A stretch of 64,000 nt of DNA from the NCBI GenBank assembly GCA_963720545.1, contig OY970399.1, positions 512,001 through 576,000 on the forward strand, given 5' to 3'. Shown one piece after another: positions 42,386 to 56,378 of the stretch. The notes under the pieces were generated by a model. That model had not been told where the DNA came from, ran no database searches, and was given only the letters and a program-made list of their open reading frames with translations. This DNA comes from an uncultured Acidobacteriota bacterium. GTDB lineage: Bacteria > Acidobacteriota > Vicinamibacteria > Fen-336. The translations under genes and the position numbers were made by a program. Position 1 is the first letter of the stretch. Each line of letters starts with the position of its first letter.

Positions 42386-43072
42386 CTGCGCGCCCGCCGC
42401 CTCGGCCGCGTGCCCTACGCCGAAGGCCTGCGCCTGCAGGCGCAGCTGGTGGCGGAGCGCCAGCAGGACCTGGTCGAAGACACCCTGCTGCTCCTCGAGC
42501 ACGATCCGGTGTTCACTCTCGGCCGCAACGCGCGCAAGGAGCACGTGCTGTTCCCCGAGGAATGGCTGCGCGGCCGCGGCTTCGAGGTGTTCGAGTCCGG
42601 GCGCGGCGGCGACGTCACCTACCATGGCCCCGGCCAGCTGGTCGGCTACCCGATCTTCAAGCTGCCGCCCGCGCGCCGCGATGTGCACCGCTACGTGCGG
42701 GCGCTCGAAGACGTGATGATCCGGACCTGCGCCGCCTACGGAATCTCGGCGGGACGCGTCGCGGGAATGACGGGCGCCTGGGTCGGGGAGCAGAAGATCG
42801 GCGCCATCGGCGTGCGCATCGCCCGCTGGGTGACCTCCCACGGTTTCGCGCTCAACGTCAACAATTCGCTCGAGCCGTTTTCCCTCATTGTTCCGTGCGG
42901 CATCGCCGGCAAGGGTGTCACGAGCCTCGGCGCGCTGCTCGGCCGTGAAGAGCCGCTCGAGCGCGTGATGGACCGCATCGAGGAAAACGTCGGCGCGTTG
43001 CTGGCGCCCCGCAACGACGCCGACGCCGAGGCGGCTACCGAGACGGCGCGGCCGGCCGCAGCGCTGCGCTGA
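42386..43072 (+). CDS. lipB: Lipoyl(octanoyl) transferase LipB (probable CTG start)
   Basis: LLEH.PV.TLGR, RGG.VTYHGPGQ, KI.AIG, HG.ALN, I.PCG. Confidence 0.93.
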   Translation: MRARRLGRVPYAEGLRLQAQLVAERQQDLVEDTLLLLEHDPVFTLGRNARKEHVLFPEEWLRGRGFEVFESGRGGDVTYHGPGQLVGYPIFKLPPARRDVHRYVRALEDVMIRTCAAYGISAGRVAGMTGAWVGEQKIGAIGVRIARWVTSHGFALNVNNSLEPFSLIVPCGIAGKGVTSLGALLGREEPLERVMDRIEENVGALLAPRNDADAEAATETARPAAALR

Positions 43073-44411
43073 TTCGCTCCGCCAGCACCGCGGCGTCGGC
43101 GATGGCGGCGTTGATCGAGACACCGCGGCAGCCGTTGCCGCCGACGAACAGGGCGCCGCGGCTCGCTGCCAGCGCCTCGATGCGCGCGACGCGCGCGGTG
43201 TGGCCGGGCGCGTACTGCGGGATCCCGGCGCGATGCCGAAAGACGCGCACGAAGCGTGGCGCCGCGGTGATGCCCATGACGCGCCGCAGGTCGGAGCGCG
43301 CCGCGACCTCCAGCTCCTGGTCGGAAAGCTCGAGCACCTGCGGCGCCGCCGCCCCGCCGAGCATGGCGCGCAGCAGCGCGTGCCCGGCTGGGGCACGGTT
43401 CGCGAAGATCGCCGAATCCCAGAGCACCCCGAGGGTTTTCAAACCCTCGCCGCGGCCGGCGAGCACGCCGAAGCCGTCGAGCGGCCGCGACAGGTCGGCG
43501 CTGCGGTAACCGAGCGCCACCACCGCCACGTCCGCGGCGCCGATCGCCAACAGCTCCCGCGCGAGCAGCGCGTCGATGCCGGCGACCACCTCTGCGGCGG
43601 CGGCAGGCGGACAGCAGAGCGCAACGGCGTCGGCGACGAGCGTCTCGCCGGTGCGCAACTGCAGTCGGAAGCCGCCTTCCGGGCGGTCGATGTCGATGCG
43701 CGCAACCGCCGCTTTGGTGCGCAGCGCCGGGCCCACGCTGCGCGCCAGGCTCGCGGCGAGCGTCGCGACACCACCGCGCAGCGAGACCAGCCGGGCCCGG
43801 TGGCGGCCGCCGCGGCGGCGCGCCAGCATGCCGCGGAACAGGCTTCCGTGCTCTTGCTCGAGGCGGCAAAGTGCCGGGAACGCGGCGCCGCTCGACAGCT
43901 CGCGCGGGTCGCCCGCGAAGACGCCCGCCGCCATCACGTCGGCGATGGCCGCCGCTGCCTCCTCGCCCAGGCGCCGTGCGAGGAACGCGTGTACGGTCTC
44001 GTCGCCGCTTTCCGCCGACGCAGTGCCCCGGGGCACGAACGGCTCGCGCAGCAGGCGCAGCTTGCCGCGCGCGCTGAGCAGCCGGCTGCGGGCAAACGAC
44101 GCGGGCCCCGTGGGCACGCGATGCAGCTCCCGGCCGCGATAGACGTAGCGCCGCCGCGCGTTGGCGTTGCTCGATTCGATCGCATCCTCGAGGCCGAGTG
44201 CCGCGATCAGCGAGCGGGTGGCCGGCTGGTTGTCGAGCCAGCCGTTGGCGCCGGCTTCGACCGTGTAGCCGTCGGCCTCCAGGGTGCACAGCTTGCCGCC
44301 CGCGCCTTGCGCCGCTTCGAGCACCACCGCCGTGATGCCGCCCTGCGCCAGGAGGCCGTGCGCGAGCGCCAGCCCGGAGACGCCGCCGCCGACGATCGCG
44401 ACCCGTTTCAC
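43035..44411 (-). CDS. hemG: Protoporphyrinogen/coproporphyrinogen oxidase (HemY-type FAD enzyme)
   Basis: GTG at 44411; VAIVGGG.SGL, E.GAN, G.FAGDP..LS, GFG.L, IPQY..GH. Confidence 0.9.
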   Translation of the reverse strand: MKRVAIVGGGVSGLALAHGLLAQGGITAVVLEAAQGAGGKLCTLEADGYTVEAGANGWLDNQPATRSLIAALGLEDAIESSNANARRRYVYRGRELHRVPTGPASFARSRLLSARGKLRLLREPFVPRGTASAESGDETVHAFLARRLGEEAAAAIADVMAAGVFAGDPRELSSGAAFPALCRLEQEHGSLFRGMLARRRGGRHRARLVSLRGGVATLAASLARSVGPALRTKAAVARIDIDRPEGGFRLQLRTGETLVADAVALCCPPAAAAEVVAGIDALLARELLAIGAADVAVVALGYRSADLSRPLDGFGVLAGRGEGLKTLGVLWDSAIFANRAPAGHALLRAMLGGAAAPQVLELSDQELEVAARSDLRRVMGITAAPRFVRVFRHRAGIPQYAPGHTARVARIEALAASRGALFVGGNGCRGVSINAAIADAAVLAERISAALRPAAPSR

Positions 44412-44422
44412 TGGTGGGCGGC

Positions 44423-45814
44423 CTACACCGTCCGCGAAAAACCGGTGCGTGCCGAGGCGCCGCGGCGATACCGGTCGAACACCATGCAGACGTTGCGCAC
44501 CAGCAGGCGCCCGCGTTCGGTCACCGCCACCTCGGTGGCGTCGGGCGTCACCGCAACGATGCCGTCTTCGCTGAGCGCGCCGCGCAGCTCGGCCAGCTCG
44601 GCGGCGAAGTAGTCGCGGAACGACACGCCGAAGCGGCTCTCGACCGCGCGCGCCGCGACGCGAAAGTTGCACATCAGTTCCGCGATCACATGCCGCCGCA
44701 GCCGGTCGTCGGCGTCGAGGCGAAAGCCGCGCTCGATCGGGAAGCGGCCGCGGTCGAGCGCTTCGTAGTACTCGCTCAGCTTCTTAACGTTCTGCGCGAA
44801 CGCCCCGGAGACGTCGCCGATGGCGGAAACACCGCAGCCGACCATGTCCGGCGCGGGCCGCGTGGTGTAGCCCATGAAGTTACGGTGCAGGATGCCGGCG
44901 CGCGCGGCGATCGCGAGTTCGTCCTCCGGCACCGCGAAGTGGTCCATGCCGATCGCGGCATAGCCGGCGCCGAGGAAGCGTTCGCGCGCCATGAGGAAGA
45001 GCGCCATCTTCTCCTCGGCCGAGGGCAGCGCCTCTGGCGACAGCGTGCGCTGATGGCCCTTCATCCACGGCACGTGCGCGTAGGAATAGATCGCGGTGCG
45101 CTCCGGCCGGTTGCGCAACACGCTGTCGAGCGTGCGCGCGAAGCCGTCGCGGGTCTGCCGCGGCAGCCCGTAGATCAGGTCGACGTTGGTCGAGCGGAAA
45201 CCCGCGGCGCGCGCCTGCGCCAGCAGCGTCCAGGTTTCTTCCTCCGACTGGATGCGGTTGACCGCCTGCTGCACGGGCGCGTCGAAGTCCTGCACGCCCA
45301 GCGAAAGGCGGTTGAAGCCGAGGCGCCGCAGCGTATCGATGTGCTCGGCCGTGGTGACGCGCGGGTCCACCTCGATGGCCGCTTCGCCCTGCGGGTCGAG
45401 GTCGAAGTGCTGCGCGACCACGTCCTGCAGCTCCTGCATCTGCGCGGGAGCCAGGTACGTGGGGGTGCCGCCGCCCCAGTGATACTGCACCACGCGGCGG
45501 CGGCCGCCGAGTGCGCCGGCAAGCATCGCCAGCTCGCGGTGCAGGTAGCCGAGGTACTTTTCGGCCACCGAGCGGTTCTTGGTGATGATCACCATGCAGC
45601 CGCAGAAAGTGCAGCGCTCTTCGCAGAAGGGCAGGTGGAGGTAGAGCGACAGCGGCTGATCCGGTGCTCGCGCCGCGGCGGCCAGCTGCTCGCGGTATGC
45701 GGGCTCGTCGAACGCGCTGCTGAACTCGAGCGCGGTCGGATACGACGTGTAGCGCGGACCGGGCCGGTCGTAGGCCCGCAGCAGCTCCAGCGGCACGGCC
45801 GCGGCGGCGCTCAA
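44423..45814 (-). CDS. hemN: Oxygen-independent coproporphyrinogen III dehydrogenase
   Basis: YD.PGPRYTSYP N-terminus, CEERCTFC radical SAM motif, HWGGGTPT, IGMDHF, HRNFMGYT. Confidence 0.95.
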   Translation of the reverse strand: MSAAAAVPLELLRAYDRPGPRYTSYPTALEFSSAFDEPAYREQLAAAARAPDQPLSLYLHLPFCEERCTFCGCMVIITKNRSVAEKYLGYLHRELAMLAGALGGRRRVVQYHWGGGTPTYLAPAQMQELQDVVAQHFDLDPQGEAAIEVDPRVTTAEHIDTLRRLGFNRLSLGVQDFDAPVQQAVNRIQSEEETWTLLAQARAAGFRSTNVDLIYGLPRQTRDGFARTLDSVLRNRPERTAIYSYAHVPWMKGHQRTLSPEALPSAEEKMALFLMARERFLGAGYAAIGMDHFAVPEDELAIAARAGILHRNFMGYTTRPAPDMVGCGVSAIGDVSGAFAQNVKKLSEYYEALDRGRFPIERGFRLDADDRLRRHVIAELMCNFRVAARAVESRFGVSFRDYFAAELAELRGALSEDGIVAVTPDATEVAVTERGRLLVRNVCMVFDRYRRGASARTGFSRTV

Positions 45815-46887
45815 GCGCTCACCCGCTCGCTTTGCTCGCGCACCGCGTCCACCAGCACCTGCGCGTGATCGGGCGGCGTCATCGGCAGGATGCCGTGGCC
45901 GAGGTTGAAGATGTGTCCGCCGCCGGCGCGCGCGGCGGCCGCCAGCACGGCGGCGATGCGCTCACGGATCGCCTGCGGCGGCGCCAGCAGCACGGCGGGA
46001 TCGAGGTTCCCCTGCAGCGCCGGGCCGCGCCCGAGCTTCTGCCGCGCGTCGTCGAGGTCCACGCGCCAGTCCACCCCCACCACGTCGGCGCGCACGTCGC
46101 GCACCCGCGACAGCCGCCCGGCCGAGCCTTCGCCGGCATAGTAGATCCGCGGCGGGCTGGCACCTTGTGGACTGGCACTCGCCACGGCGTCCATCACCTG
46201 GCGCGCATAGGGAATCGCGAACGTCTCGTCGTCGTCCTTCGACAGGATGCCGGCCCAGCTGTCGAACAGCATCACCGCCTGCGCACCCGCCTCGGCCTGC
46301 GCCGCCAGCGACAGGGCCGCCGTCGCCGCGCAGATGGCGAGCAGGCGGTGCGCGGTGGCCGGGTCGTTGTAGAGGAGCGACTTCAGCGCAGCGAAGTTCT
46401 TCGTGCCGCCACCCTCGACGAGGTAGGCCGCGACGGTGAACGGCGCGCCGGCAAAGCCGATGAGCGGTACCGTTGGCGGCAGCGCGCCGCGCACCAGCCG
46501 CAGCGTCTCCAGCAGCCAGGGTGTTGCTTCGGCGGCGGGTGCGACGCGCAGCGTATCGACGTCGGCCGGCGTGCGGATGGTGCGCGCCAGCTTCGGTCCG
46601 GGGGCAAAAGCCACGTCAACCCCCATGCCCGGCAGGCCGATGAGAATGTCGGAGAAGACGATCGCCGCGTCCACGCCGAAGCGGCGGATCGGCTGCAAGG
46701 TCAGTTCGCAGGCGATCTCCGGGGTCTTGCAGCTCGTCAGGAAATCGTAGCGCTCACGCACCGCGCGGTACTCCGGCAGGTAGCGCCCGGCCTGGCGCAT
46801 CATCCACACCGGCGTGCGCGGTACGTCCTCGCCGCGGCACGCGCGCAGGAAGAGCGCGTCTTCGTGCTGGCTGCGCGGCTCACTCAT
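45811..46887 (-). CDS. hemE: Uroporphyrinogen decarboxylase
   Basis: PVWMMRQAGRYLPEY, AAI.FSDIL, LIGFAGAPFT, QGNLDP, IFNLGHGI. Confidence 0.97.
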   Translation of the reverse strand: MSEPRSQHEDALFLRACRGEDVPRTPVWMMRQAGRYLPEYRAVRERYDFLTSCKTPEIACELTLQPIRRFGVDAAIVFSDILIGLPGMGVDVAFAPGPKLARTIRTPADVDTLRVAPAAEATPWLLETLRLVRGALPPTVPLIGFAGAPFTVAAYLVEGGGTKNFAALKSLLYNDPATAHRLLAICAATAALSLAAQAEAGAQAVMLFDSWAGILSKDDDETFAIPYARQVMDAVASASPQGASPPRIYYAGEGSAGRLSRVRDVRADVVGVDWRVDLDDARQKLGRGPALQGNLDPAVLLAPPQAIRERIAAVLAAAARAGGGHIFNLGHGILPMTPPDHAQVLVDAVREQSERVSA

Positions 46888-48184
46888 GGGCAATGCGCAT
46901 CGCCTCGGCGGCCGCCGCGACGGTTGCGTCGATCTGGGCATCGGTGTGGGCGATGGAGATGAAGTTGGCCTCGAACTGCGACGGGGCGAGGAAAAAGCCG
47001 CGGTCGAGCATCACGTGGAAGAAACGGCCATAGCGCGTGGCGTCGCTGGCCTTCGCCGAGGGCCAGTCGACGACCGCGTCTGCGGTGAAGAACAGCGTCC
47101 ACATGGACGCGGCGCGCTGGATGCGGCACGGCACGCCCTGTGCGGCGATGGCCCCCGCGATGCCCTGCTCGAGCCGCGCGCCGAGGGCTTCGAGCCGCGT
47201 GTAGAGATCGGGCATCGCGGCAATCGTGCGCAGCGTCGCGAGCCCTGCCGCCATGCCGAGCGGGTTGCCCGACAGCGTACCCGCCTGGTACACGGGCCCT
47301 TCCGGGGCCACCTGGCTCATCAGGTCGCGGCGCCCGCCGTAGGCTGCGACCGGCAGGCCGCCGCCGACGATCTTGCCGAGGGTCGTGAGGTCGGGCCGCA
47401 CCGAGAACCGCTCCTGCGCGCCACCGCGGCTCACGCGGAAGCCGGTCATCACCTCGTCGAAGATGAGGAGCGCGCCGTGCTCGTCGCACAGCGCGCGCAG
47501 ACCGCCCAGGAAGCCCGCGGCCGGCACGACCACGCCCATGTTGCCGACCACCGGTTCGACGATGAGCGCGGCAACCTTGCCGGGATTGGCGGCAAACAGC
47601 GCGGACACATCGGCGAGGTCGTTGAAGCGGGCGTTCAGTGTATCGCGCGCCGTGGCCGGCGTGACCCCGGGGCTGTCCGGCGTGCCGAAGGTCGCGGCAC
47701 CCGAGCCGGCGCGGATCAGGAACGAGTCGGCATGGCCGTGGTAGCAGCCCTCGAACTTGATGACACGATCCCGGCCGGTAGCCGCACGCGCCAGCCGGAT
47801 CGCGGACATGGTGGCCTCGGTGCCCGAGTTCACCATGCGCACCTTCTCGATCGCCGGCATGAGGCTCGTCAGCAGCTCGCCCATCTCCACTTCGAGCCGG
47901 CTCGGCGCGCCGAACGAGATGCCGGCCCGGGCTTGCTCACGCACCGCCGCAACCACCGCCGGGTGCGAGTGGCCCAGGATCATCGGACCCCACGAACCGA
48001 TGTAGTCGACGAGCGCCCGGCCGTCCTCGTCGAAGACCAGCGAGCCTGCGGCGCGGGCGATGAACCGCGGGCTGCCGCCGACTGCGCGGTAGGCGCGCAC
48101 CGGCGAATTGACGCCGCCCGGCAGCACCTTCCCCGCCCGCTCGAAGAGCAACTCGCTGGCGGTCGTTTCGCTCGCTTGCGTCAT
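46880..48184 (-). CDS. hemL: Glutamate-1-semialdehyde 2,1-aminomutase
   Basis: PGGVNSPVRA, SWGP.ILGH, NSGTEATM, FDEVMTGFR, GKI.GGGLP, YQAGTLSGNP. Confidence 0.97.
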   Translation of the reverse strand: MTQASETTASELLFERAGKVLPGGVNSPVRAYRAVGGSPRFIARAAGSLVFDEDGRALVDYIGSWGPMILGHSHPAVVAAVREQARAGISFGAPSRLEVEMGELLTSLMPAIEKVRMVNSGTEATMSAIRLARAATGRDRVIKFEGCYHGHADSFLIRAGSGAATFGTPDSPGVTPATARDTLNARFNDLADVSALFAANPGKVAALIVEPVVGNMGVVVPAAGFLGGLRALCDEHGALLIFDEVMTGFRVSRGGAQERFSVRPDLTTLGKIVGGGLPVAAYGGRRDLMSQVAPEGPVYQAGTLSGNPLGMAAGLATLRTIAAMPDLYTRLEALGARLEQGIAGAIAAQGVPCRIQRAASMWTLFFTADAVVDWPSAKASDATRYGRFFHVMLDRGFFLAPSQFEANFISIAHTDAQIDATVAAAAEAMRIAHE

Positions 48185-48187
48185 GGT

Positions 48188-49171
48188 TCACGCCAGCAGG
48201 CGCGCAGCCTCCTTCGCGAAGTAGGTCAGGATCACGTCGGCGCCCGCGCGGCGGATCGCGATCAGCGACTCCAGCATGGCGCGTTCGCCGTCGATCCAGC
48301 CGTTGGCGGCCGCGGCGCGCAGCATCGCGTACTCGCCCGAGACGTGGTAGGCGCAGACCGGCGCCGCGAAGCGCTGCTTCACTCGCCAGATGACGTCGAG
48401 ATACGGGAGCGCCGGCTTCACCATGACGACGTCGGCGCCCTCTTCGAGATCGAGCGCCACCTCGCGCAGCGCTTCGTCGGAATTGGCGGGATCCATCTGG
48501 TAGCCGCGGCGGTCGCCGAAGGACGGCGTCGAGCCGGCGGCTTCACGAAACGGCCCGTAGAAAGCCGATGCGTACTTCGCCGCGTACGACACCAGCACCA
48601 CGTCGCTGCGTCCGGCGGCGTCGAGAGCGCGACGGATGACGCCGACGCGGCCGTCCATCATGTCGGAGGGCGCAACCACGTCGGCGCCGGCCTCCGCGTA
48701 GACGAGCGCTGCCTGCGCCAGCAGCGGCAGCGTCGCGTCGTTGTCCACCTCGACGCCGCGCGCATCCTCGTGCAGCGGCCCGCAGTGGCCGTGGTCGGTG
48801 TACTCGCACAGGCACACGTCGGCCCACAGCGACATCTGCGGCAACTCAACCCGCAGGGCGCGCAGCGCCGCCGGCACCGGCCCGTTCGGATCCCACGCCG
48901 CCGTCCCGTGCGCGTTCTTCGCGTCAGGGATGCCGAAGAGGATGACGCCCGGCACGCCGAGCGAGTGCAGCTCACGGCATTCCCCTAGCAGCAGGTCGAC
49001 GCTGAGGCGGTCGCAACCGGGCATCGCGCCGATGGGCACGCGCACGTTCTCGCCGCCGCACACGAACAGCGGCGCGATCAGGTCGCTCGGCGCGAGCCGC
49101 GTCTGCGCGAACATCCGGCGCAGCGTCTCGGTGCGCCGCAGGCGCCGCGGCCGCGACAGCGGATAGCTCAA
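48188..49171 (-). CDS. hemB: Porphobilinogen synthase (Zn-type)
   Basis: TTG at 49171 overlaps the hemD stop; RPRRLR, CLCEYT.HGHC, APSDMMDGR, FYGPFREA, MVKP. Confidence 0.97.
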   Translation of the reverse strand: MSYPLSRPRRLRRTETLRRMFAQTRLAPSDLIAPLFVCGGENVRVPIGAMPGCDRLSVDLLLGECRELHSLGVPGVILFGIPDAKNAHGTAAWDPNGPVPAALRALRVELPQMSLWADVCLCEYTDHGHCGPLHEDARGVEVDNDATLPLLAQAALVYAEAGADVVAPSDMMDGRVGVIRRALDAAGRSDVVLVSYAAKYASAFYGPFREAAGSTPSFGDRRGYQMDPANSDEALREVALDLEEGADVVMVKPALPYLDVIWRVKQRFAAPVCAYHVSGEYAMLRAAAANGWIDGERAMLESLIAIRRAGADVILTYFAKEAARLLA

Positions 49172-49959
49172 TGGAGCCGCACCCTGCGACCTTCGATTGC
49201 GGCCATCACCGCTTCCGCCAGGCCGTCCACCGTGCGGCAGCGCGGTTCGACGTCGGCGGGCGCGCCCAGCGACGCGAGCGCTGCCGACGTCGTCGGCCCG
49301 ACACTGGCCACCACGGTCCTCTTCACAAGCACCCGAAGCGAAGCATCGTCGAACGCCGCGGCCAGTGAAAAGGCGGCGGACGGCGCAAGGAACGTCACCG
49401 CGGCGATCTCGCCGGCATCGAGCAGCGCGCGGAAGCGCCCTGTCTCCGCGGGCTCGGTGGCGCTGGTCGTGTAGGCAACCGGGTCGCAGACCGTGAAGCC
49501 CATCGCCTCGAGGCGCAATCGGAAGTCGGGAGCGGCGCGCTCCGAGCGCGGCCACAGCACCCGGCCGCGACCAACTGCGTCGAGAGCCGCCGCGAGCCCT
49601 GCCGCGCCCGCGTCCGGTGCCGCCACCACCACGTCCGGCGCGATGTCCTCGGCAAGCAGCGCTTCGGCAGTCGCCGGCCCGGCCGCCGCCACCAACGGGC
49701 GCTCGGCACATCGCGCCAGCAGCATCGTGAAGCCGCGGCCGCACGCAGCCGCAACCGCGCGCCGGCTCGTGAACGCGACGCTGCGGAACGTCGCGAGGTC
49801 GCGAAGCGCCGCGTCGAGCGGGGCGAAGTCGCCGGGCTCGCCAATGGCGGTGGCGGCAAGGGGAAACGGCGCCGCGCCGCGCCGCGCCAGCGCTTGCCAG
49901 AGCGGGCCGCCCGCGCCCTCGTCGCGGGTGATGACGACGATGGGCCGTGCCGCGTTCAT
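49168..49959 (-). CDS. hemD: Uroporphyrinogen-III synthase
   Basis: V.ITR, FTS..AV, GP.TA.AL, V.Y.T, F..PSA, SVGP.T..AL...G; lies between hemC and hemB. Confidence 0.88.
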   Translation of the reverse strand: MNAARPIVVITRDEGAGGPLWQALARRGAAPFPLAATAIGEPGDFAPLDAALRDLATFRSVAFTSRRAVAAACGRGFTMLLARCAERPLVAAAGPATAEALLAEDIAPDVVVAAPDAGAAGLAAALDAVGRGRVLWPRSERAAPDFRLRLEAMGFTVCDPVAYTTSATEPAETGRFRALLDAGEIAAVTFLAPSAAFSLAAAFDDASLRVLVKRTVVASVGPTTSAALASLGAPADVEPRCRTVDGLAEAVMAAIEGRRVRLH

Positions 49960-50933
49960 CGTTCCACCGCCGCGGCCAGCGCAGGATTGGCGGCGTGCGC
50001 CGCGCGCACTTCAGAAAGGATGGCGCTGGCACCCTCGGCGAGCGCGCGGCCTCCAAGGACATCGCCGAACGCAACCGCAGCCGCCTCGCTCGTGACCTCC
50101 TCGACAGCACGCTGCCGCACCACTTGCTGTCCATTGACGCTTGCGACCATCGCATCGAGCTGCAGGCGGCCGTCCTGCCAGGTGCCCAGAGCGCCCACCG
50201 GCGCCTGACAGCCGCCTTCGACGCGATGGAGGAACGCCCGCTCGGCAGCCACCGCCAGGCGGGTCGGCCCATGGTCGAGCGCCGCGGCCAGCGCGCATGC
50301 GCGTGCGTCGCCGCTGCGCACCTGCACGGCAAGCGCCCCCTGTCCCGGCGCCGGCACGAAGTCACGCGCGTCGAGCAGCTCGCTCACACGCCGTGCGAGC
50401 CCCAGGCGCGCGAGCCCGGCCTGCGCCAGGATCACGGCGTCGCAGTCGCCGCGGTCGAGTTTCGCGAGGCGGGTCGGCACGTTGCCGCGCAGGTCGCACA
50501 CGCGCAGGTCGGGGCGGGCCGCGAGCAGCTGCGCGCGGCGGCGCAGCGACGACGTGCCGATGCGCGCGCCGCGGCCGAGCTGCCGCAACCCGCCGCCGGC
50601 GCGCGACACCAACGCGTCGCGCGGATCCTCGCGTTCCAGGATCGCGGCAAGCTGCAGGCCGGCGCCCGGCGCCGTCTGCAGGTCCTTGAGGCTGTGGACG
50701 GCGATGTCGACGCGCCCTTCTAACAGTGCATCCTCGATCTCGCGCGTGAAGACCCCCTGGGTGCCGATGGCGGCGAACGCCGCGGCGGCGGCCTGGTCAC
50801 CGGCGGTCCGGACGACGACCACCTCGATGCCGAGCCCAGGCGTCGCCTCCAGGAGCCGTTCGCGGACATGCCCGGCCTGCCACAAGGCCAGGGCGCTGCC
50901 GCGCGTGCCGAGCCGCAGCGCTGCGTCAGCCAA
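49956..50933 (-). CDS. hemC: Hydroxymethylbilane synthase
   Basis: TTG at 50933; GTRGS.LA.WQA, AVHSLKD, GTSSLRR, RGNV.TR, EGGC. Confidence 0.96.
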   Translation of the reverse strand: MADAALRLGTRGSALALWQAGHVRERLLEATPGLGIEVVVVRTAGDQAAAAAFAAIGTQGVFTREIEDALLEGRVDIAVHSLKDLQTAPGAGLQLAAILEREDPRDALVSRAGGGLRQLGRGARIGTSSLRRRAQLLAARPDLRVCDLRGNVPTRLAKLDRGDCDAVILAQAGLARLGLARRVSELLDARDFVPAPGQGALAVQVRSGDARACALAAALDHGPTRLAVAAERAFLHRVEGGCQAPVGALGTWQDGRLQLDAMVASVNGQQVVRQRAVEEVTSEAAAVAFGDVLGGRALAEGASAILSEVRAAHAANPALAAAVER

Positions 50934-52200
50934 GGATGTCCTCGTGCTCGGGCGTGAGCCCGAACAACTCGTGTGCCGCGCGCAGCCGCGCGCTGCCCTC
51001 GGCGGTGCGCGGGTCGATGCCGCGCAACTGGCTGGCCGGTGCCTGCAGCAGTTTGTTGACGAGCGCACGCGTGAGCCGCTCGATGTCGCGGCGATGCTCG
51101 GCCGGGAAGCCCGCGAGGTGGCGCTCGACCTCGGCTTCGCGGATCGACTCGAAGCGTGCGCGCAGCCGGCGCTCGAACGGCGGCCGGCGGAAGCTCTCGT
51201 CCCACGCGACGAAGCGGCCGCACTCCTGCGCGACGATGTTCTCGACCTTGCGCACTTCCGCCTCGCGCAGGCTCTGGTTGCGGGCCACCACCTCACCGAC
51301 GTCGTCGATCGACACCAGCGTGACGCCGACGCCGTTAACCGCGGCGCCCGGTTCGACCGCGCGCGGCACCGAGACGTCGATCACCAACAGCGGCCGGCCC
51401 GCGCGACGCGACACGCAGCGATCGAGCGCGGCGCGGGTGAGCAGCGGCGCTTCGGTGCGCACGGCCACCAGCACCACGTCAACGTCGTCGAGGACCGTGT
51501 CGATGTCCTCGAGCCCGACGGCCCGGCCGCGCACTTCCCTGGCCAGGGCCTGCGCGCGCGCCGCGGTGCGGTTCGCGACATAGAGCGCCGCGGCACGCTT
51601 GTCGGCCGCGTGCAGCGCCAGCAGCCTGCCGGTCTCGCCCGCGCCGATCACCAGCACCTTGCGGCTCGCGAACCCGGCCGTGCCGCGCGCGGCGAGCGAC
51701 ACCGCGGCCGACGCCACCGACAAGGCGCCCCTGGCAAGCGCCGTTTCCGCGCGTCCGCGCCGTCCTGCGCCGAGCGCCGCGGCCACCAGCCGCTCGAGCC
51801 GCGGACCCGAGGCGCCCGCCGCACGCGACAGCGCCAGCGCGTCCTTCACCTGGCCGAGGATCTCGGTTTCGCCGAGGATCCGCGACTCGAGGCCGCAGGC
51901 GACTCGCAACAGGTGGCGGCAGGCCGCCTCATCCGAGGCACGCCGCGCCGCGGCTGCCAGGGCCTGCTCACGCTCGGCGCCGAGCGTGCGCGCGACGAAG
52001 CTGTCAAAGGCGCCGCGGTCCGGCGCGAATGCGTACACTTCCGCGCGGTTGCAGGTGCTGAGCACCAGCGCTTCGCGCCAGACGCCGGCCGCGATGCCCT
52101 CGCGCAGCAGCTCCTGCGCCGCGGCGGCATCACGCGCCGCGTGTTCGCGCAGTTCCACCGCCGCTACACGGTGATCGACGCCAAGAAGTTGAAGATCCAT
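50926..52200 (-). CDS. hemA: Glutamyl-tRNA reductase
   Basis: LSTCNR catalytic Cys, GL.S...GE..ILGQVK, IGAGE, D.SVPR; GAGAGGG SD directly before the ATG. Confidence 0.95.
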   Translation of the reverse strand: MDLQLLGVDHRVAAVELREHAARDAAAAQELLREGIAAGVWREALVLSTCNRAEVYAFAPDRGAFDSFVARTLGAEREQALAAAARRASDEAACRHLLRVACGLESRILGETEILGQVKDALALSRAAGASGPRLERLVAAALGAGRRGRAETALARGALSVASAAVSLAARGTAGFASRKVLVIGAGETGRLLALHAADKRAAALYVANRTAARAQALAREVRGRAVGLEDIDTVLDDVDVVLVAVRTEAPLLTRAALDRCVSRRAGRPLLVIDVSVPRAVEPGAAVNGVGVTLVSIDDVGEVVARNQSLREAEVRKVENIVAQECGRFVAWDESFRRPPFERRLRARFESIREAEVERHLAGFPAEHRRDIERLTRALVNKLLQAPASQLRGIDPRTAEGSARLRAAHELFGLTPEHEDILG

Positions 52201-52329
52201 CCCTCTCGTACCCGTTCCTGCACGCGCGACCTCGTGGACGGTGGGCGCGTGTTCCAGGGCAAGCGCCCCGGAGTCCTTGCTGAGTTGACCTGCGAAGGAC
52301 CGTTAGAACGGCGGGGGGCGGGAGAAGAG
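52201..52329 (-). promoter_or_regulatory. Putative translational attenuator RNA structure that sequesters the hemA ribosome-binding site
   Basis: Three hairpins in the 102-nt intergenic mRNA. They are closed by pairing of the upstream ORF's last codons (CCGUUC, CUUCUC) with GAACGG and GAGAGG just before the hemA AUG. Folded by eye. Confidence 0.55.
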
Positions 52330-52788
52330 CGACGGCGTGAACGCGGCGCGTCTTGCCGAAATGGCGGAGACGACGCCCACGCGCGCATGTCGAAGCCGCG
52401 GCACCAGAAGCTGGGCGCGGCCAAGAAGCGCCGTGACCAGCAGGATGGTGGCGACGATCGGCGCGAGCGAGCCGGGAAGCAGGAAAATGCCGTCGGCGTT
52501 GGCAACAGAATCGACAGGTGGCGCCGCCACGCCAAGATGCAGCGCCACCACCAGTACGCCGAGCACGACCAGCTTGCGCGTGGAGAACGGACGGCCGCGG
52601 CGCCACAGTTCGCGCAGCGCGGCGACGACGGCAAGGGCCGCTCCCCAGCGCACGAAATCGAGCGCGCCGAAGTCGGCCCGGGCAATGCGCGAAAGAAGCA
52701 GCCAGACGTGGAACAGGACCAGCGGCACGCCGGATGCGGCGCCCGCGATCCACAACAACTTCCGGCCAGTCAAGGTCTTGCCAGTCAC
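52303..52788 (-). CDS. Four-TM membrane protein with a C-terminal RPPP (RAPP-like) motif; candidate ribosome-arrest leader of the hem operon
   Basis: 161 aa, four hydrophobic helices, His27 and His84 within helices, ends ...TPSLFSRPPPF-stop, 102 nt upstream of hemA. Confidence 0.7.
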   Translation of the reverse strand: MTGKTLTGRKLLWIAGAASGVPLVLFHVWLLLSRIARADFGALDFVRWGAALAVVAALRELWRRGRPFSTRKLVVLGVLVVALHLGVAAPPVDSVANADGIFLLPGSLAPIVATILLVTALLGRAQLLVPRLRHARVGVVSAISARRAAFTPSLFSRPPPF

Positions 52789-52800
52789 CTGCTGCCGACC

Positions 52801-53562
52801 TTACGACGCCGGAGTGCCCCGGTCAAGGCTGATCTGCCCCGGCTGGCGGCGCAGCTCGTCCACCAGCCGCGCGTTGCGCAGGGCCACCACCAGGAACTCG
52901 GCGATGGTTTCGCCGGTGGCCACGTCGTCGAGGCCGAAATCGTCGATCTGGTCGCTCTGCACGTCGATCGCCCCCACCACCTCGCCGCCGTCCATCAGCG
53001 GCACCACCATCTCGGAGCGCGTGTCGAGGACGTCGCGGCGATAGTCGGGGTCGCGGCGCACGTCGCTCACCACCTGCGGCGCGCGCTTGCGCACCGCGCG
53101 GCCGATGATGCCGGCAGCCGGGGCCTGCGCGCGTCCCGCCGACTGGCGGCTCACGCCCTCGCGTCCGGCCCACCGCCCGATCAGGACGCCATCGGTATCG
53201 AGCACGGTGACCGCGACCGAGTTGTAGTTCATCTTTTCCTGGATGGCGCGCGCCGCCTCCTGCATGAGCGCATCGGATTCGAGGATGGACGCGACCCGGT
53301 GGATGACCGAGTTGAGCATGGCCAGGTGGTCGGCGCGGCGCTGGTGGAGGCGCGACTGCGCCCGCAGCGCGGACACTTCCTCGCTGAGTTCACCCAGGCG
53401 CGCGAGCGCCAACCCGTCGGGCCCGCCGCCGGCCCTGTGCGTCGCCGGCCTGCGAACCGCCGGTGCGGCCCGCCTCGCCTTCTTCAGCGGGTTCCTCGTG
53501 GTCGTCTTCTTCTTCACCGCTTTTTTCTTCACCGCGGTCTTCCTGCTGGCGCGCGACTTCAT
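52801..53562 (-). CDS. Stand-alone GAF-domain protein with a Lys/Arg-rich N-terminal tail
   Basis: ATG at 53562 overlaps the menG stop (ATGA); GIIGRA......V.DVR.DP.Y....TRSE..VPL...G..VGAIDVQS....F...D GAF signature. Confidence 0.85.
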   Translation of the reverse strand: MKSRASRKTAVKKKAVKKKTTTRNPLKKARRAAPAVRRPATHRAGGGPDGLALARLGELSEEVSALRAQSRLHQRRADHLAMLNSVIHRVASILESDALMQEAARAIQEKMNYNSVAVTVLDTDGVLIGRWAGREGVSRQSAGRAQAPAAGIIGRAVRKRAPQVVSDVRRDPDYRRDVLDTRSEMVVPLMDGGEVVGAIDVQSDQIDDFGLDDVATGETIAEFLVVALRNARLVDELRRQPGQISLDRGTPAS

Positions 53563-54308
53563 CGGGGTTTCTCCGCTCGGTAGAGATGGGCAATGCCGGA
53601 CGTCAGCGATTCCGCGGTGATGGCGGCGAATCCGTTGCGCTCGAGCAGCTCGCAGAAGCGCTGCGGCTCCGGGAACCGCGCGATCGACGACGGCAGGTAT
53701 TCGTAGGCCGAGCGGTCGCCGCTGACGAGCGCGCCGACGCGCGGCAGGACGTGGCGCGAGTAGGAACGGTACAAGGCACCCATGAGGCCGCGTGGGTTCG
53801 AGAACTCGAGTATCAGGAAGCGCCCGCCCGGGCGCAGCACCCGCGCCACCTCGGCCATGGCCTGCTCGAGACGCAGCACGTTGCGGATGCCGAACGAGAC
53901 ACACGCGGCATCGAAGGACGCTGCGGCAAACGACAGGTTCTCCGCATCGCCGCCGAGGAGCGTCGCACGCCCGGCGAGTCCGGCGCGTTCGAGCTTGCCG
54001 TGTCCCAGCGACAGCATCCCCGACGAAAGGTCGATGCCGGCGCCGGTGGTGCCGCCGGTCTTGCGCAGCGCTGCGCGCAGGACATCGGCGGTGCCGGTGC
54101 ACAGGTCGAGGAGTCGCTCGCCGTTTTGCAGTTCCAGCCGCTTCACCAGGCGCCGCCGCCAGCGCAGGTCGGTGCCGCCGGAGAGCAGGTGGTTGAGCAG
54201 GTCGTAGCGGTGCGCGATGCGGTCGAACATCGACCGCACGGCCGCTTTCTCGGGGGCGCCGGGCGTCGGACCGGGCAACACCGCCGACGAGCTCCTCACC
54301 ACGGCCAC
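53559..54308 (-). CDS. menG: Demethylmenaquinone methyltransferase (UbiE/MenG family)
   Basis: MFD.IA.RYD.LN..LS.G.D..WR, LDLCTGT.D, FG.RN, RVL.PGG, AY.YL..SI. Confidence 0.92.
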   Translation of the reverse strand: MAVVRSSSAVLPGPTPGAPEKAAVRSMFDRIAHRYDLLNHLLSGGTDLRWRRRLVKRLELQNGERLLDLCTGTADVLRAALRKTGGTTGAGIDLSSGMLSLGHGKLERAGLAGRATLLGGDAENLSFAAASFDAACVSFGIRNVLRLEQAMAEVARVLRPGGRFLILEFSNPRGLMGALYRSYSRHVLPRVGALVSGDRSAYEYLPSSIARFPEPQRFCELLERNGFAAITAESLTSGIAHLYRAEKPR

Positions 54309-54315
54309 CTGCGAA

Positions 54316-55179
54316 TTATAGAAGGACGAGGGCGGTCACGGTGGCCGCAAGGTACAGGACGCTGATCCAGCCGTTCACGGTGAAGAACGCGGCGTTCACG
54401 CGCGACAGGTCGGAGGCGCTCACCAGGCTGTGCTCGTACACGAGCAGCAGCGCCACCAGCGCCACCCCGAGGAGGTAGGCGGGGTGCAGCGGATGGAACC
54501 AGTAGACCGAGGCGAGCGATGCCACCGCCAACACGTGCAGGCCGCGCGCGATCCCGAGCGCCGTCGCGACTCCGAAGCGTGCGGGCAGCGACCGCAGGCC
54601 GGCGCCGCGGTCGAAGTCGGCGTCCTGGCACGAATAGATGACGTCGAAGCCCGCCACCCAAAACAGCACGCCGAAGCCGACGAGGAACGGCACCACCGCG
54701 AAGCTGCCGCGGATGGCGAGCCATGCGCCGACGGGCGCAATCGCAAGTGCGACGCCAAGGACGAGGTGCGACAGCGACGTGAACCGCTTGGTATACGAGT
54801 AGCCGCAGACGATTGCCAGCGCCAAAGGCGCCAGCACTCCGCACAGCGGGTTGAGCGCGACCGCCGCTGCCACGAATGCCGCGGCCGACAGCGCCACGAA
54901 CAACCAGACATGCAGCCGCGCCAGCCGGCCCGACGGCAGCTCGCGGCCGCTGGTGCGCGGGTTGCGCGCATCGATGTCGTGATCGGCGAGGCGGTTGAAA
55001 CCCATGGCCGCGCTGCGCGCGCCGACCATGGCCACGACGATGAGCGCCACCTGGCGCAGCGTGACCCCGTTGCCGCCGGCAAGCGCCGCCGCCGCGAGCG
55101 CGAACGGCAACGCAAACAGCGAATGCGAGAAGCGGATCATCCGCCCGTAGTCGACGACACGCCCGCCGGCGGTGATCAT
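54316..55179 (-). CDS. mqnP: UbiA-family prenyltransferase of the futalosine pathway
   Basis: ATG at 55179; HS.FALPFA, ARS.AM..NR..D...D..NPRT..R, YS..KR, FD..Y..QD...D, N.AFF..NG. Confidence 0.88.
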   Translation of the reverse strand: MITAGGRVVDYGRMIRFSHSLFALPFALAAAALAGGNGVTLRQVALIVVAMVGARSAAMGFNRLADHDIDARNPRTSGRELPSGRLARLHVWLFVALSAAAFVAAAVALNPLCGVLAPLALAIVCGYSYTKRFTSLSHLVLGVALAIAPVGAWLAIRGSFAVVPFLVGFGVLFWVAGFDVIYSCQDADFDRGAGLRSLPARFGVATALGIARGLHVLAVASLASVYWFHPLHPAYLLGVALVALLLVYEHSLVSASDLSRVNAAFFTVNGWISVLYLAATVTALVLL

Positions 55180-55193
55180 GGCCGCGCCTCGCG

Positions 55194-56378
55194 TCAGACG
55201 GGACGCGGGCGGGCTTCGCCGGACACCAGGAACTCGAACGGATCTCCCGGTGCCGTGTAGGCCGAGGCATGCACCAGCTGCGCGCGCTTGCCCGGCGCGA
55301 TGGTGCCGAGATCGTCGAGGCCGAGGGCGCTGGCGCCGGCCACGGTGGCCATGCGGACCAGCGTCTCGGCGCCGAGCGTCGGCACCGCGCGGCGCAGCGC
55401 GCCGATGTCGTCCATCAGGTCGAGTGTCGGCACGCTCGCGAGGCTGTCGGTGCCGATGCAGACGTTGATGCCGGCATCCACCATCTTCTGCACCGGCGGC
55501 AGCCCCACCTTGAGGTTGCGGTTGCTGCGCGGGCAAACCGCGATCGACACGCCCGACGCCGCAAGGTCCGCGACGTCGTCGTCGTCGGCCTGCGTGCAGT
55601 GCGCGGCGATCAGCTTCGGCCGCAGCACGCCGATCGAACGCAGGTACGCGACGGGGCTGATGCCGGGCGCCTGGAACGGCACCGGGCCGACGCGCCGCTT
55701 GAGGAAGTCGGACCAGTCGCCGTTGCCGGTCATGAAGAAGCGCATCTCGGCGGGCGATTCGGCGAGGTGAATGGTCGCCGGCGCACCCTGCGCCGACATC
55801 AGCGTGAACAGGTCGCGCGACACCGAGTGCGGCGCGTGCGCGCCCATCATCACGCGCACGTCGCTCTCGCCAAGCTCGGGGTCGAGCTGCGCCAGCCGTG
55901 CCAACGCCTTGTCGAGGACCGTCTTTGCCTGCGCCGGGTCCCAGCCGATCAGTTCGTAGAAGACGACCGCGTGCAGCGGCGAGTTGGCCAGCAGGTCGAG
56001 GTGCGCGAGCGTGTTGGAGATGTCGCCGACGGCGACCGTACCCGTCGTCTCCAGCGCGCGCAGCGCGTCCTGGACCTTGAGCCGCACCACCTGGGCGTTC
56101 TCGTCGCGGCGCGCGTCGATCAGGTTCTGCACCCACGGCACGAAGCCGAGCGAAAAATCGATGCGGTGGCGCAGGTGCGACAGCTCGATGTGGCAATGGG
56201 CGTTCACGAGACCGGGCAGGAGGACGCCTGGACCGAGACGGCGCACGGGTCCCTGCGGCTCCCCCGCCTCGCCGGCGAGGCCGACCCAGACCACGCGACC
56301 GTCCTGGACCGCCACCCGCCCGTTCGGCAAGGGCGGCCGATCCATCGGCACCACCCAGGACGACGTCAGTATCTGCAC
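55194..56378 (-). CDS. Amidohydrolase, probable aminodeoxyfutalosine deaminase
   Basis: PGL.NAH.H.E, H.AES, CPRSN, GTDS; sits inside the mqn cluster, and the function is inferred from that context. Confidence 0.72.
   Translation of the reverse strand: MQILTSSWVVPMDRPPLPNGRVAVQDGRVVWVGLAGEAGEPQGPVRRLGPGVLLPGLVNAHCHIELSHLRHRIDFSLGFVPWVQNLIDARRDENAQVVRLKVQDALRALETTGTVAVGDISNTLAHLDLLANSPLHAVVFYELIGWDPAQAKTVLDKALARLAQLDPELGESDVRVMMGAHAPHSVSRDLFTLMSAQGAPATIHLAESPAEMRFFMTGNGDWSDFLKRRVGPVPFQAPGISPVAYLRSIGVLRPKLIAAHCTQADDDDVADLAASGVSIAVCPRSNRNLKVGLPPVQKMVDAGINVCIGTDSLASVPTLDLMDDIGALRRAVPTLGAETLVRMATVAGASALGLDDLGTIAPGKRAQLVHASAYTAPGDPFEFLVSGEARPRPV

Follow-up and report, generated by a model that had tools for sequence, protein, structure and literature searches.

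Ligand sensing by RAPP-type arrest peptides has been shown for copper; a bacterial arrest peptide that responds to heme was not found in print in the literature searched, with most subscription journals lying outside it. According to the available text of the respective reports, CruR of Bordetella pertussis (Bp2923, DUF2946/PF11162; PMC9426467) is encoded by an upstream ORF that ends in a C-terminal RAPP, keeps a conserved motif spacing of 45 residues and is followed by a long intergenic region. It heads a TonB-receptor operon, is exported by a signal peptide and carries a CxxC copper site; the ligand relieves the arrest and uptake is switched off. In CutF of Rhodobacter capsulatus (bioRxiv 10.1101/2025.02.05.636593), the ligand is sensed outside the cytoplasm, translation stalls at a C-terminal PPP, and the stalled ribosome melts a Shine-Dalgarno (SD) stem. 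ApdA/ApdP, SecM and MifM (PMC10951233, PMC10987492, PMC12992588) have an R-x-P/P core near the C-terminus and an SD that is exposed by arrest; the members tested act as Sec/YidC monitors and are found ahead of sec/yidC or other genes. A survey in EMBO J (PMC12992588), which extracted RAPP and RGPP only, reports RAPP upstream ORFs before TonB receptors and metal genes. The words 'heme', 'hemA' and 'RPPP' are absent from its main text, and the portion of its supplement that was searched contains no glutamyl, heme, hemin or cytochrome c entries and five hemoglobin-type rows, the two listed being Cys-type leaders.

The window considered here, a stretch of 64,000 nucleotides from an uncultured Acidobacteriota bacterium, holds a leader ORF ahead of hemA (Table 1). 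An arrest-dependent switch of some kind is very likely at this leader, and the ORF probably encodes a heme-sensing arrest peptide that switches heme supply at the level of translation. The balance tips slightly toward a specific form of this switch, in which the four-helix nascent chain, still attached to the ribosome, binds heme between two His residues in the outer leaflet, and translation of heme synthesis or import genes stops once the stall is released. By a similarly narrow measure, the evidence favors one portable leader that controls synthesis operons where heme is made and operons for a receptor or for cytochrome c maturation in a large group of Acidobacteria whose heme auxotrophy had gone unremarked.

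Table 1. Coordinates of the leader, the hemA junction and the downstream operon in the window.
Feature	Position	Strand	Basis or remark
Leader ORF, 161 aa, four predicted TM helices, candidate heme-sensing arrest peptide	52303..52788	-	AlphaFold, family alignments
His27, candidate heme ligand, outer half of helix 1	52708..52710	-	invariant 64/64; membrane side inferred from loop charges
Arg47-Trp48, outer end of helix 2	52645..52650	-	W 64/64; R 62/64, K in the other 2
His84, candidate second heme ligand, outer end of helix 3	52537..52539	-	invariant 64/64; 73 residues before the arrest Arg
R157-P158-P159-P160, arrest-like motif	52309..52320	-	predicted P-site codon 52314-52312, A-site codon 52311-52309 (analogy with ApdA/ApdP)
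Anti-SD strand, the leader's last ten codons	52306..52335	-	pairs with hemA SD and AUG in several registers; mostly beneath the assumed footprint 52327-52299
Spacer hairpin H1, less stable	52273..52300	-	mean pair probability 0.81-0.98; 5' edge touches the footprint
Spacer hairpin H2, GCUU loop	52254..52271	-	mean pair probability 1.0
Spacer hairpin H3	52221..52251	-	mean pair probability 0.99
GAACGG, 3' strand of the initially drawn closing stem, minor register	52212..52217	-	folding
hemA SD GAGAGGG and ATG, masked in the free state	52198..52207	-	folding models
hemA, glutamyl-tRNA reductase, first regulated gene	50926..52200	-	TIGR01035, 324 bits, over cut-off; Pfam
hemC, hemD, hemB, hemL, hemE, hemN, hemY-type protoporphyrinogen oxidase	43035..50933	-	stop/start overlapping or <=11 nt apart

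The leader family and its gene contexts

Judged by its sequence, the leader belongs to an unnamed four-helix membrane family. The 161-residue protein matches no Pfam family at E <= 1 and no NCBIfam model; the families matched at E <= 0.1 by 64 leader-family members do not include PF11162, and PF01794 appears among them as a weak match in two members. AlphaFold places helices at residues 6-37, 42-63, 70-88 and 98-123 with modest confidence (pLDDT 72), and the loops are basic inside and acidic outside, the positive-inside pattern. The 64-sequence alignment has six invariant columns (H27, W48, H84, R157, P159 and P160), and besides the arrest motif and one Leu face its most conserved residues are two His, one Trp and one Arg. 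In the predicted topology, H27 and H84 lie in the periplasmic half of the parallel helices 1 and 3, and R47-W48 would share that half of the membrane. The combination of two His, an Arg and a Trp at the outer leaflet is suited to a heme b site, with Arg47-Trp48 as a candidate propionate contact and stacking residue. Fold searches with the leader model returned no heme protein (best Z 7.0) and no Foldseek match. The window protein contains no Cys, and the family alignment shows neither a conserved Cys column nor a conserved acidic third ligand.

His27 and His84 are 58-59 residues apart in 55 of 59 loci, and the distance from His84 to the arrest Arg is 72-81 residues in 50 loci, 62 in eight and 68 in one. 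With this spacing, helices 1-3 would already lie in the membrane during a stall, and helix 4 would be positioned at the tunnel exit. Relatives of the leader were found by sequence search in the class Vicinamibacteria and the phylum Acidobacteriota, in at least 57 of 301 class genomes and at least 19 of 401 phylum genomes, both lower bounds, with 11 (class) and 8 (phylum) candidates scored per genome. Thirty unnamed ESM Atlas clusters match the leader, the three listed being commonest in Acidobacteriota; the absence of longer fused forms among 8000 candidates is weak evidence.

The leader ends in SRPPPF, directly before its stop codon. Across all 59 loci the motif keeps its Arg and its last two Pro without exception, the second position being Pro in 44, Ala in 14 and Gly in one, and the motif lies 1-10 residues from the stop codon. 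RAPP (53) or RPPP (18) stands within the last 25 residues of 71 of the 73 proteins listed, the other two appearing truncated, and ends of this type occur in 6 of the 3362 called genes of the source genome. By analogy with ApdA and ApdP, in which an Ala-to-Pro change to RPPP partly keeps arrest, ribosomes would be expected to stall at RPPP in the leader; RPPP is described there as a weaker staller than RAPP or RGPP (PMC12992588). The PPP stall of CutF is reportedly relieved by EF-P (bioRxiv 10.1101/2025.02.05.636593), and the source genome has two EF-P-like genes (G000:C1:133111-133662 and 2473770-2474327).

The leader is the first gene in all 63 loci, and in all 59 class loci it lies on the same strand, 47-208 nt before the next gene, a distance that contrasts with the overlap of other operon genes. 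The gene that follows belongs to a heme-synthesis operon in 13 loci, encodes a TonB receptor of heme-like type in 39 and is an unnamed membrane gene linked to such receptors in 11; the counts within the class are 13, 37 and 9. Seven of the 13 hem-type loci open with hemA and six with a ccsA-type gene, and some of these operons include ferrochelatase. The receptor of the 37 class loci has 880 residues, and in many cases an unnamed membrane protein of 235 aa comes next; in nine other loci that membrane gene stands directly under the leader. In the four loci outside the class, the leader precedes either a receptor of a second clade, which shares 26-28% identity with the first, or the membrane gene and then such a receptor, and one of these loci continues into ccmA, ccmB, ccmC and ccmE. 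On a tree that left out rows L095 and L096, the three contexts need only three changes, the hem-type leaders falling in one clade together with one other locus, so that the contexts represent few independent events and Fisher tests overstate their association. Despite this kinship, each leader context still concerns heme supply or delivery.

No second leader copy occurs before 13 other hemA loci, and none at 25 receptor loci fetched as leaderless, three of which have too short a stretch upstream. The leader is optional, and the heme-like receptor of the source genome (G000:C1:1542113-1544746) does without one; that receptor gene is divergent from a two-component pair, and ferrochelatase (G000:C1:1274229-1275269) lies apart from the hem operon. 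Within that operon, hemC, hemE, hemN and the oxidase were assigned by model scans, and the labels hemD, hemB and hemL were read from sequence. A GAF-domain gene ends 12 nt before the leader, with ubiE-, ubiA- and amidohydrolase-family genes further upstream (52801-56378, minus strand), so the leader may here be read from a longer quinone-synthesis transcript; the genes upstream of the leader differ among relatives. Elsewhere in the family, the spacers of four of the 59 loci (L067, L073, L082, L085) contain tandem 7-8 nt repeats in 3-6 copies, and L109:2097-5063 joins a membrane protein and a heme-like TonB receptor in one 989-codon frame, by fusion or by a missing stop.

Predicted RNA pairing at the leader-hemA junction

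The leader stop codon (52303) and the hemA start codon, an ATG at 52200, are separated by 102 nt. The initial annotation had drawn a four-way RNA junction across this region, with three hairpins inside a closing stem (CCGUUC/GAACGG) and the leader's CUUCUC codons paired with the SD. All five helices are complementary as drawn, but they occur together in only 1, 77 and 85 of 2000 sampled structures in three folding windows, or 0.05-4% of the ensemble, and the lowest-energy fold that contains them all reaches -61.3 kcal/mol versus an optimum of -66.6. On these grounds, the exact four-way junction was rejected as the dominant fold. The closing stem is its weakest part, with a pair probability of 0.01-0.27 in four of five windows and of 0.92 in the tightest only. 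The inner hairpins are robust (mean pair probability 0.81-1.0), H2 and H3 being certain and H1 likely in the folding models. The contact between CUUCUC and GAGAGG, one G-U pair included, is likewise present, and the leader's last codons engage at least four SD bases in 2000, 1719 and 1838 of 2000 samples (86-100%). CUUCUC/GAGAGG is the register of the wide windows; a short window has CUCUU/GAGAG as an alternative to it, plus CCGUC/GAUGG across the AUG. The SD mask is thus real in the folding model, and the topology first drawn is one minor register of it.

The fold of 52190-52340 has an energy of -66.6 kcal/mol (z = -2.93), equaled by one of 200 shuffled sequences. The region therefore folds better than its shuffled controls, but 8 of the 120 comparable junctions between genes of this genome also reach z <= -2.9, as an early caution about chance pairing at high GC had anticipated, and the shuffle z-score was rejected as proof of structure. 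The intergenic portion folded alone gives z = -0.7. In line with the initial annotation, the intergenic region contains no terminator-like site; nor was a sigma-70-like promoter found in 52100-53100, and an independent hemA promoter starting in the intergenic region would have spoken against the proposed coupling. Six Rfam covariance-model matches have E 0.23-9.7, all far below the gathering score. The search for DNA of close relatives that could reveal covariation at the junction yielded an empty viral scan, one distant locus in metagenomes and distant members only in the family search. RNA reads come from one run, as a single adapter-flanked 278-nt piece (52314-52591) whose end coincides with the predicted P-site codon; a lone fragment of this kind is no evidence.

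The effect of a stalled ribosome was modeled by holding its assumed footprint unpaired, from 13 nt on the 5' side to 15 nt on the 3' side of the first P-site base, and by computing an opening cost, the ensemble cost of unpairing positions -15 to +5 around the downstream start. At hemA this cost drops by 7.6 kcal/mol, from 19.1 in the free state to 11.4 with the footprint. Three of 120 control genes cost at least 19.1 and 43 cost at least 11.4, which makes the start unusually closed in the free state and unremarkable in the stalled one. A drop of 7.6 or more occurs in one of 120 control gene pairs, whose median is 0.15. In the stalled model, the SD re-pairs weakly in a local hairpin with hemA codons 5-7, which means that it is loosened to a normal level, not freed. 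The earlier proposal that a stall on RPPP uncovers the hemA SD passes every computational test applied, both for the coupling itself, which recurs across the family, and for its position on the motif, but overstates the extent of exposure.

Over the first 59 loci, with downstream start codons chosen by eye, the median drop is 2.6 kcal/mol, rising to 3.1 over 30 sequence clusters (p ~1e-8 against the 120 control gene pairs, which derive from our own gene calls in one genome, the source). The drop is at least 2 kcal/mol in 35 loci and smaller in 24; when the folds include more upstream context, the cluster median is down to 1.6. Any G-rich SD can pair with Pro codons, so synonymous recoding of the tails served as a control. 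Native codons outdo their recodings in masking at 47 of the 59 loci and in 25 of the 30 clusters, compared with 58 of 120 controls, and none of 12 recodings equals native masking at the window locus. CCT, a rare codon, makes up 32 of 118 motif Pro codons versus 48 of 858 in downstream genes, and fills the P-site codon in 24 of 59 loci; since CCT and a following CCN spell the anti-SD core, this excess fits a codon choice tuned to the mask.

Another 30 leader-receptor loci, for which the starts were set by a rule, give a median drop of 3.1 and better masking by native than by recoded tails in 18 of 30 (p = 0.004). The same receptor without a leader (16 loci) opens at 9.7, whereas leader loci open at 9.1 when stalled and 14.1 when free. 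These two groups derive from 79 loci after the removal of 13 duplicates, nine loci without the receptor 5' end, five with short flanks, three without a start call and three whose RPPP is in another frame. In L199, L216 and L234, the RPPP end lies in a different frame from the His motif, through sequencing error or decay. When the footprint is slid along the leader, the mean effect is absent 12 or more codons upstream and reaches a plateau around the motif, with a peak on RPPP in the window. The letters of the helix differ by lineage, and L016, L068, L072 and L082 have 8 to 10 uninterrupted pairs. Exchanging tails and ribosome-binding sites between loci gives -17.2 kcal/mol for swapped versus -19.0 for native pairs (p ~0.002), a difference that is confounded by genome GC and carries little weight. 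In folding models, masking of the downstream start and its release by a footprint on RPPP appear to be family-wide, and codon choice tuned across the family to mask the start site points to regulation.

The ORF, its motif, the invariant residues, the gene contexts and the complementarity are read directly from sequence, masking and its release come from folding models, and arrest, heme as the ligand and the direction of control are inferred. The switch proposed from these features would operate as follows. With no ribosome present, the leader's last codons would pair with the hemA SD and AUG across the three spacer hairpins. A ribosome would stall with Pro159 in the P site and Pro160 in the A site, at a point where helices 1-3, with His27, Arg47, Trp48 and His84, would be in the membrane and helix 4 would be leaving the tunnel. 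It would then cover the anti-SD strand, bring the opening cost of the start to a normal level and permit translation of the coupled hemA-hemY operon. Plentiful heme, the candidate ligand, might bind between the two His and fold the nascent domain, pulling the chain off the arrest, for which the pull proposed for copper and CruR (PMC9426467) offers an analog. The mask would re-form, possibly followed by Rho termination. Low heme would be the on state. Heme would thereby limit its own synthesis here and, in relatives unable to make it, its own uptake, a negative feedback in both cases.

Possible heme import and competing readings

All seven receptors scanned have as their best models the heme/hemoglobin receptors TIGR01785/TIGR01786, at 169-251 bits versus cut-offs of 317-324; the same models cover transferrin and lactoferrin receptors. 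FRAP and NPNL are motifs of TonB-dependent heme receptors. A regular expression found motifs like these in none of 29 receptors, and the receptor consensus bears a YRHP...PNxxxKPE stretch at a like place. Heme is a likely candidate substrate by sequence resemblance. The unnamed partner membrane protein has no Pfam family match and is a candidate inner-membrane heme carrier; representatives at L054:4840-5547, L047:2024-2749 and L045:2149-2871 belong to a polytopic family of 224-242 aa whose Atlas clusters are commonest in Actinomycetota and Chloroflexota.

A heme-copper oxidase is encoded in all 62 leader genomes tested. Of 49 uptake-type genomes, those with no leader-hem operon, 37 have no hemA and 31 lack hemA, hemC and hemE together, while 18 keep at least one of the three. 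In the class sample, hemA occurs in 12 of 44 uptake-type genomes versus 196 of 244 genomes without a leader, so that most heme-making genomes of the class do without it. Within one family, the counts are 10 of 24 versus 28 of 30; kin are not independent in any of these comparisons. In another family (f4), hemA is missing from 24 of 27 genomes, and leader and receptor are missing as well. The 31 genomes lacking all three genes are near-complete or draft Acidobacteriota genomes in which heme-copper oxidases were found and hemA, hemC and hemE were not. Heme auxotrophy is possibly widespread in these Acidobacteriota; a literature search on heme auxotrophy in this group found nothing.

The most direct competitor retains the arrest-and-unmask switch but has the two His bind a metal ion (iron, copper or zinc). 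The characterized ligand-sensing relatives CruR and CutF both sense copper (PMC9426467; bioRxiv 10.1101/2025.02.05.636593), His pairs bind metals, and the receptor models extend to transferrin and lactoferrin receptors. This reading is nevertheless unlikely. Conserved Cys or acidic third ligands are absent, conserved Arg and Trp adjoin the His pair, and no metal-homeostasis gene was recognized among the recurrent downstream clusters. Additionally, iron shortage should raise uptake and lower synthesis, opposite responses that the switch, with the same polarity before both kinds of genes, would not deliver; shortage of heme is therefore the more fitting signal. A different objection concerns the output, in that a heme-sensing arrest peptide might act mainly through Rho-dependent termination, with SD pairing secondary. 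CruR acts through Rho in the available account (PMC9426467), and the source genome has two copies of Rho over the cut-off and a third strong match (G000:C1:2933402-2934634, 785932-787167 and 1833367-1834458). Eight loci of one genus (L010, L016, L019, L047, L053, L061, L071, L083), which have a DRAPP motif and a His-to-Arg spacing of 62, have C/U-rich spacers of 47-55 nt that are poor in G (C 19-27, G 5-8) and show no clear SD; this genus may use Rho or another output. For the family at large, a primary role of Rho is improbable, as the codon choice is tuned family-wide to mask the start site, the C>G skew near the motif follows from Pro codons, and the spacer at the hemA junction is balanced in composition (C 0.33, G 0.35) and filled by stable hairpins. 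The Rho and SD-masking outputs are compatible, not exclusive.

The initial annotation had likened the locus to secM-secA and mifM-yidC2, and the masking logic fits that likeness. A monitor of this type, in which membrane insertion alone releases the arrest with no ligand, would agree with the typical function of RAPP-type arrest peptides that carry localization signals (PMC10987492), and at the point of stalling helix 4 would be on its way into the membrane. It is, however, a very doubtful account of this family, since no sec or yidC gene was recognized downstream in 63 loci and the invariant H27, W48 and H84 would be left unexplained; the invariant His and the heme-only contexts point to a heme sensor, not an export monitor. 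The leader might finally be an ordinary operon gene for a heme-binding membrane chaperone or carrier, with RPPP and the pairing as a by-product of Pro codons and a G-rich SD at 69% GC. Any CCN run pairs with a G-rich SD, swapped pairs come close to native ones in energy, and the exact fold is not unique. There is little likelihood of this, given the invariant Arg, a motif held near the stop codon, the 47-208 nt spacer, the conserved His-to-Arg spacing, the first-gene position kept in 63 of 63 loci, and recoding and control-pair tests that point to regulation. The heme-sensing arrest peptide remains the preferred reading.

Comparison with described systems

If this reading is true, the leader would represent a candidate arrest peptide family, as yet unnamed, that senses heme and has a family-wide, control-tested SD mask, adding a new level of feedback control on bacterial heme biosynthesis and an example of a polytopic membrane protein whose co-translational folding is switched by a cofactor. 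In E. coli a simple reporter would suffice to test the switch, which might also find use as a genetically encoded heme sensor acting at translation. The heme reading would also assign a likely substrate to the unnamed membrane family and to two TonB receptor clades that lack annotation. Many Vicinamibacteria-related lineages are flagged as possible heme auxotrophs, which may matter for their culture.

The leader shares with RAPP-type peptides an R-x-P-P core and the form of a small membrane protein, and departs from Sec/YidC substrates of that group in its targets, which are hemA, ccsA, a TonB receptor or the membrane gene in 63 of 63 loci. HssS of Staphylococcus aureus, as described in the available text (PMC11237747), likewise senses heme at the outer membrane interface, with a conserved Arg at the propionates and an aromatic pocket. 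It is a dimeric histidine kinase that controls efflux-pump transcription, and no homology to it is claimed. Outside the window, the source genome has a 93-aa upstream ORF (G000:C1:1920903-1921184, minus strand) with an N-terminal hydrophobic stretch, a C-x-x-x-x-H-C-x-x-C motif and a C-terminal RGPP, 112 nt before genes whose labels, read from sequence, are a secreted protein, a solute-binding-like protein, a permease-like protein and a TonB receptor; this ORF looks like a CruR/DUF2946-type metal sensor.

CutF resembles the proposed switch in sensing its ligand outside the cytoplasm and in the melting of an SD stem by a ribosome stalled at a C-terminal motif. In the available account, copper acts through Cys to cause the CutF stall and turn a detoxifying gene on, whereas the ligand of the leader would release the stall and its sensor is predicted to be polytopic. 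CruR is similar in gene layout, in heading a TonB-receptor operon and in the relief of arrest by its ligand. Relative to the DUF2946 proteins, the leader has no PF11162 match and no CxxC/CxxxC motif, so that only the spacing principle is shared. In place of an exported CxxC protein with a 45-residue spacing and a Rho-mediated output, the leader family offers four helices, two His with an Arg-Trp pair, a spacing of mostly 72-81 residues, heme-related targets and predicted SD masking.
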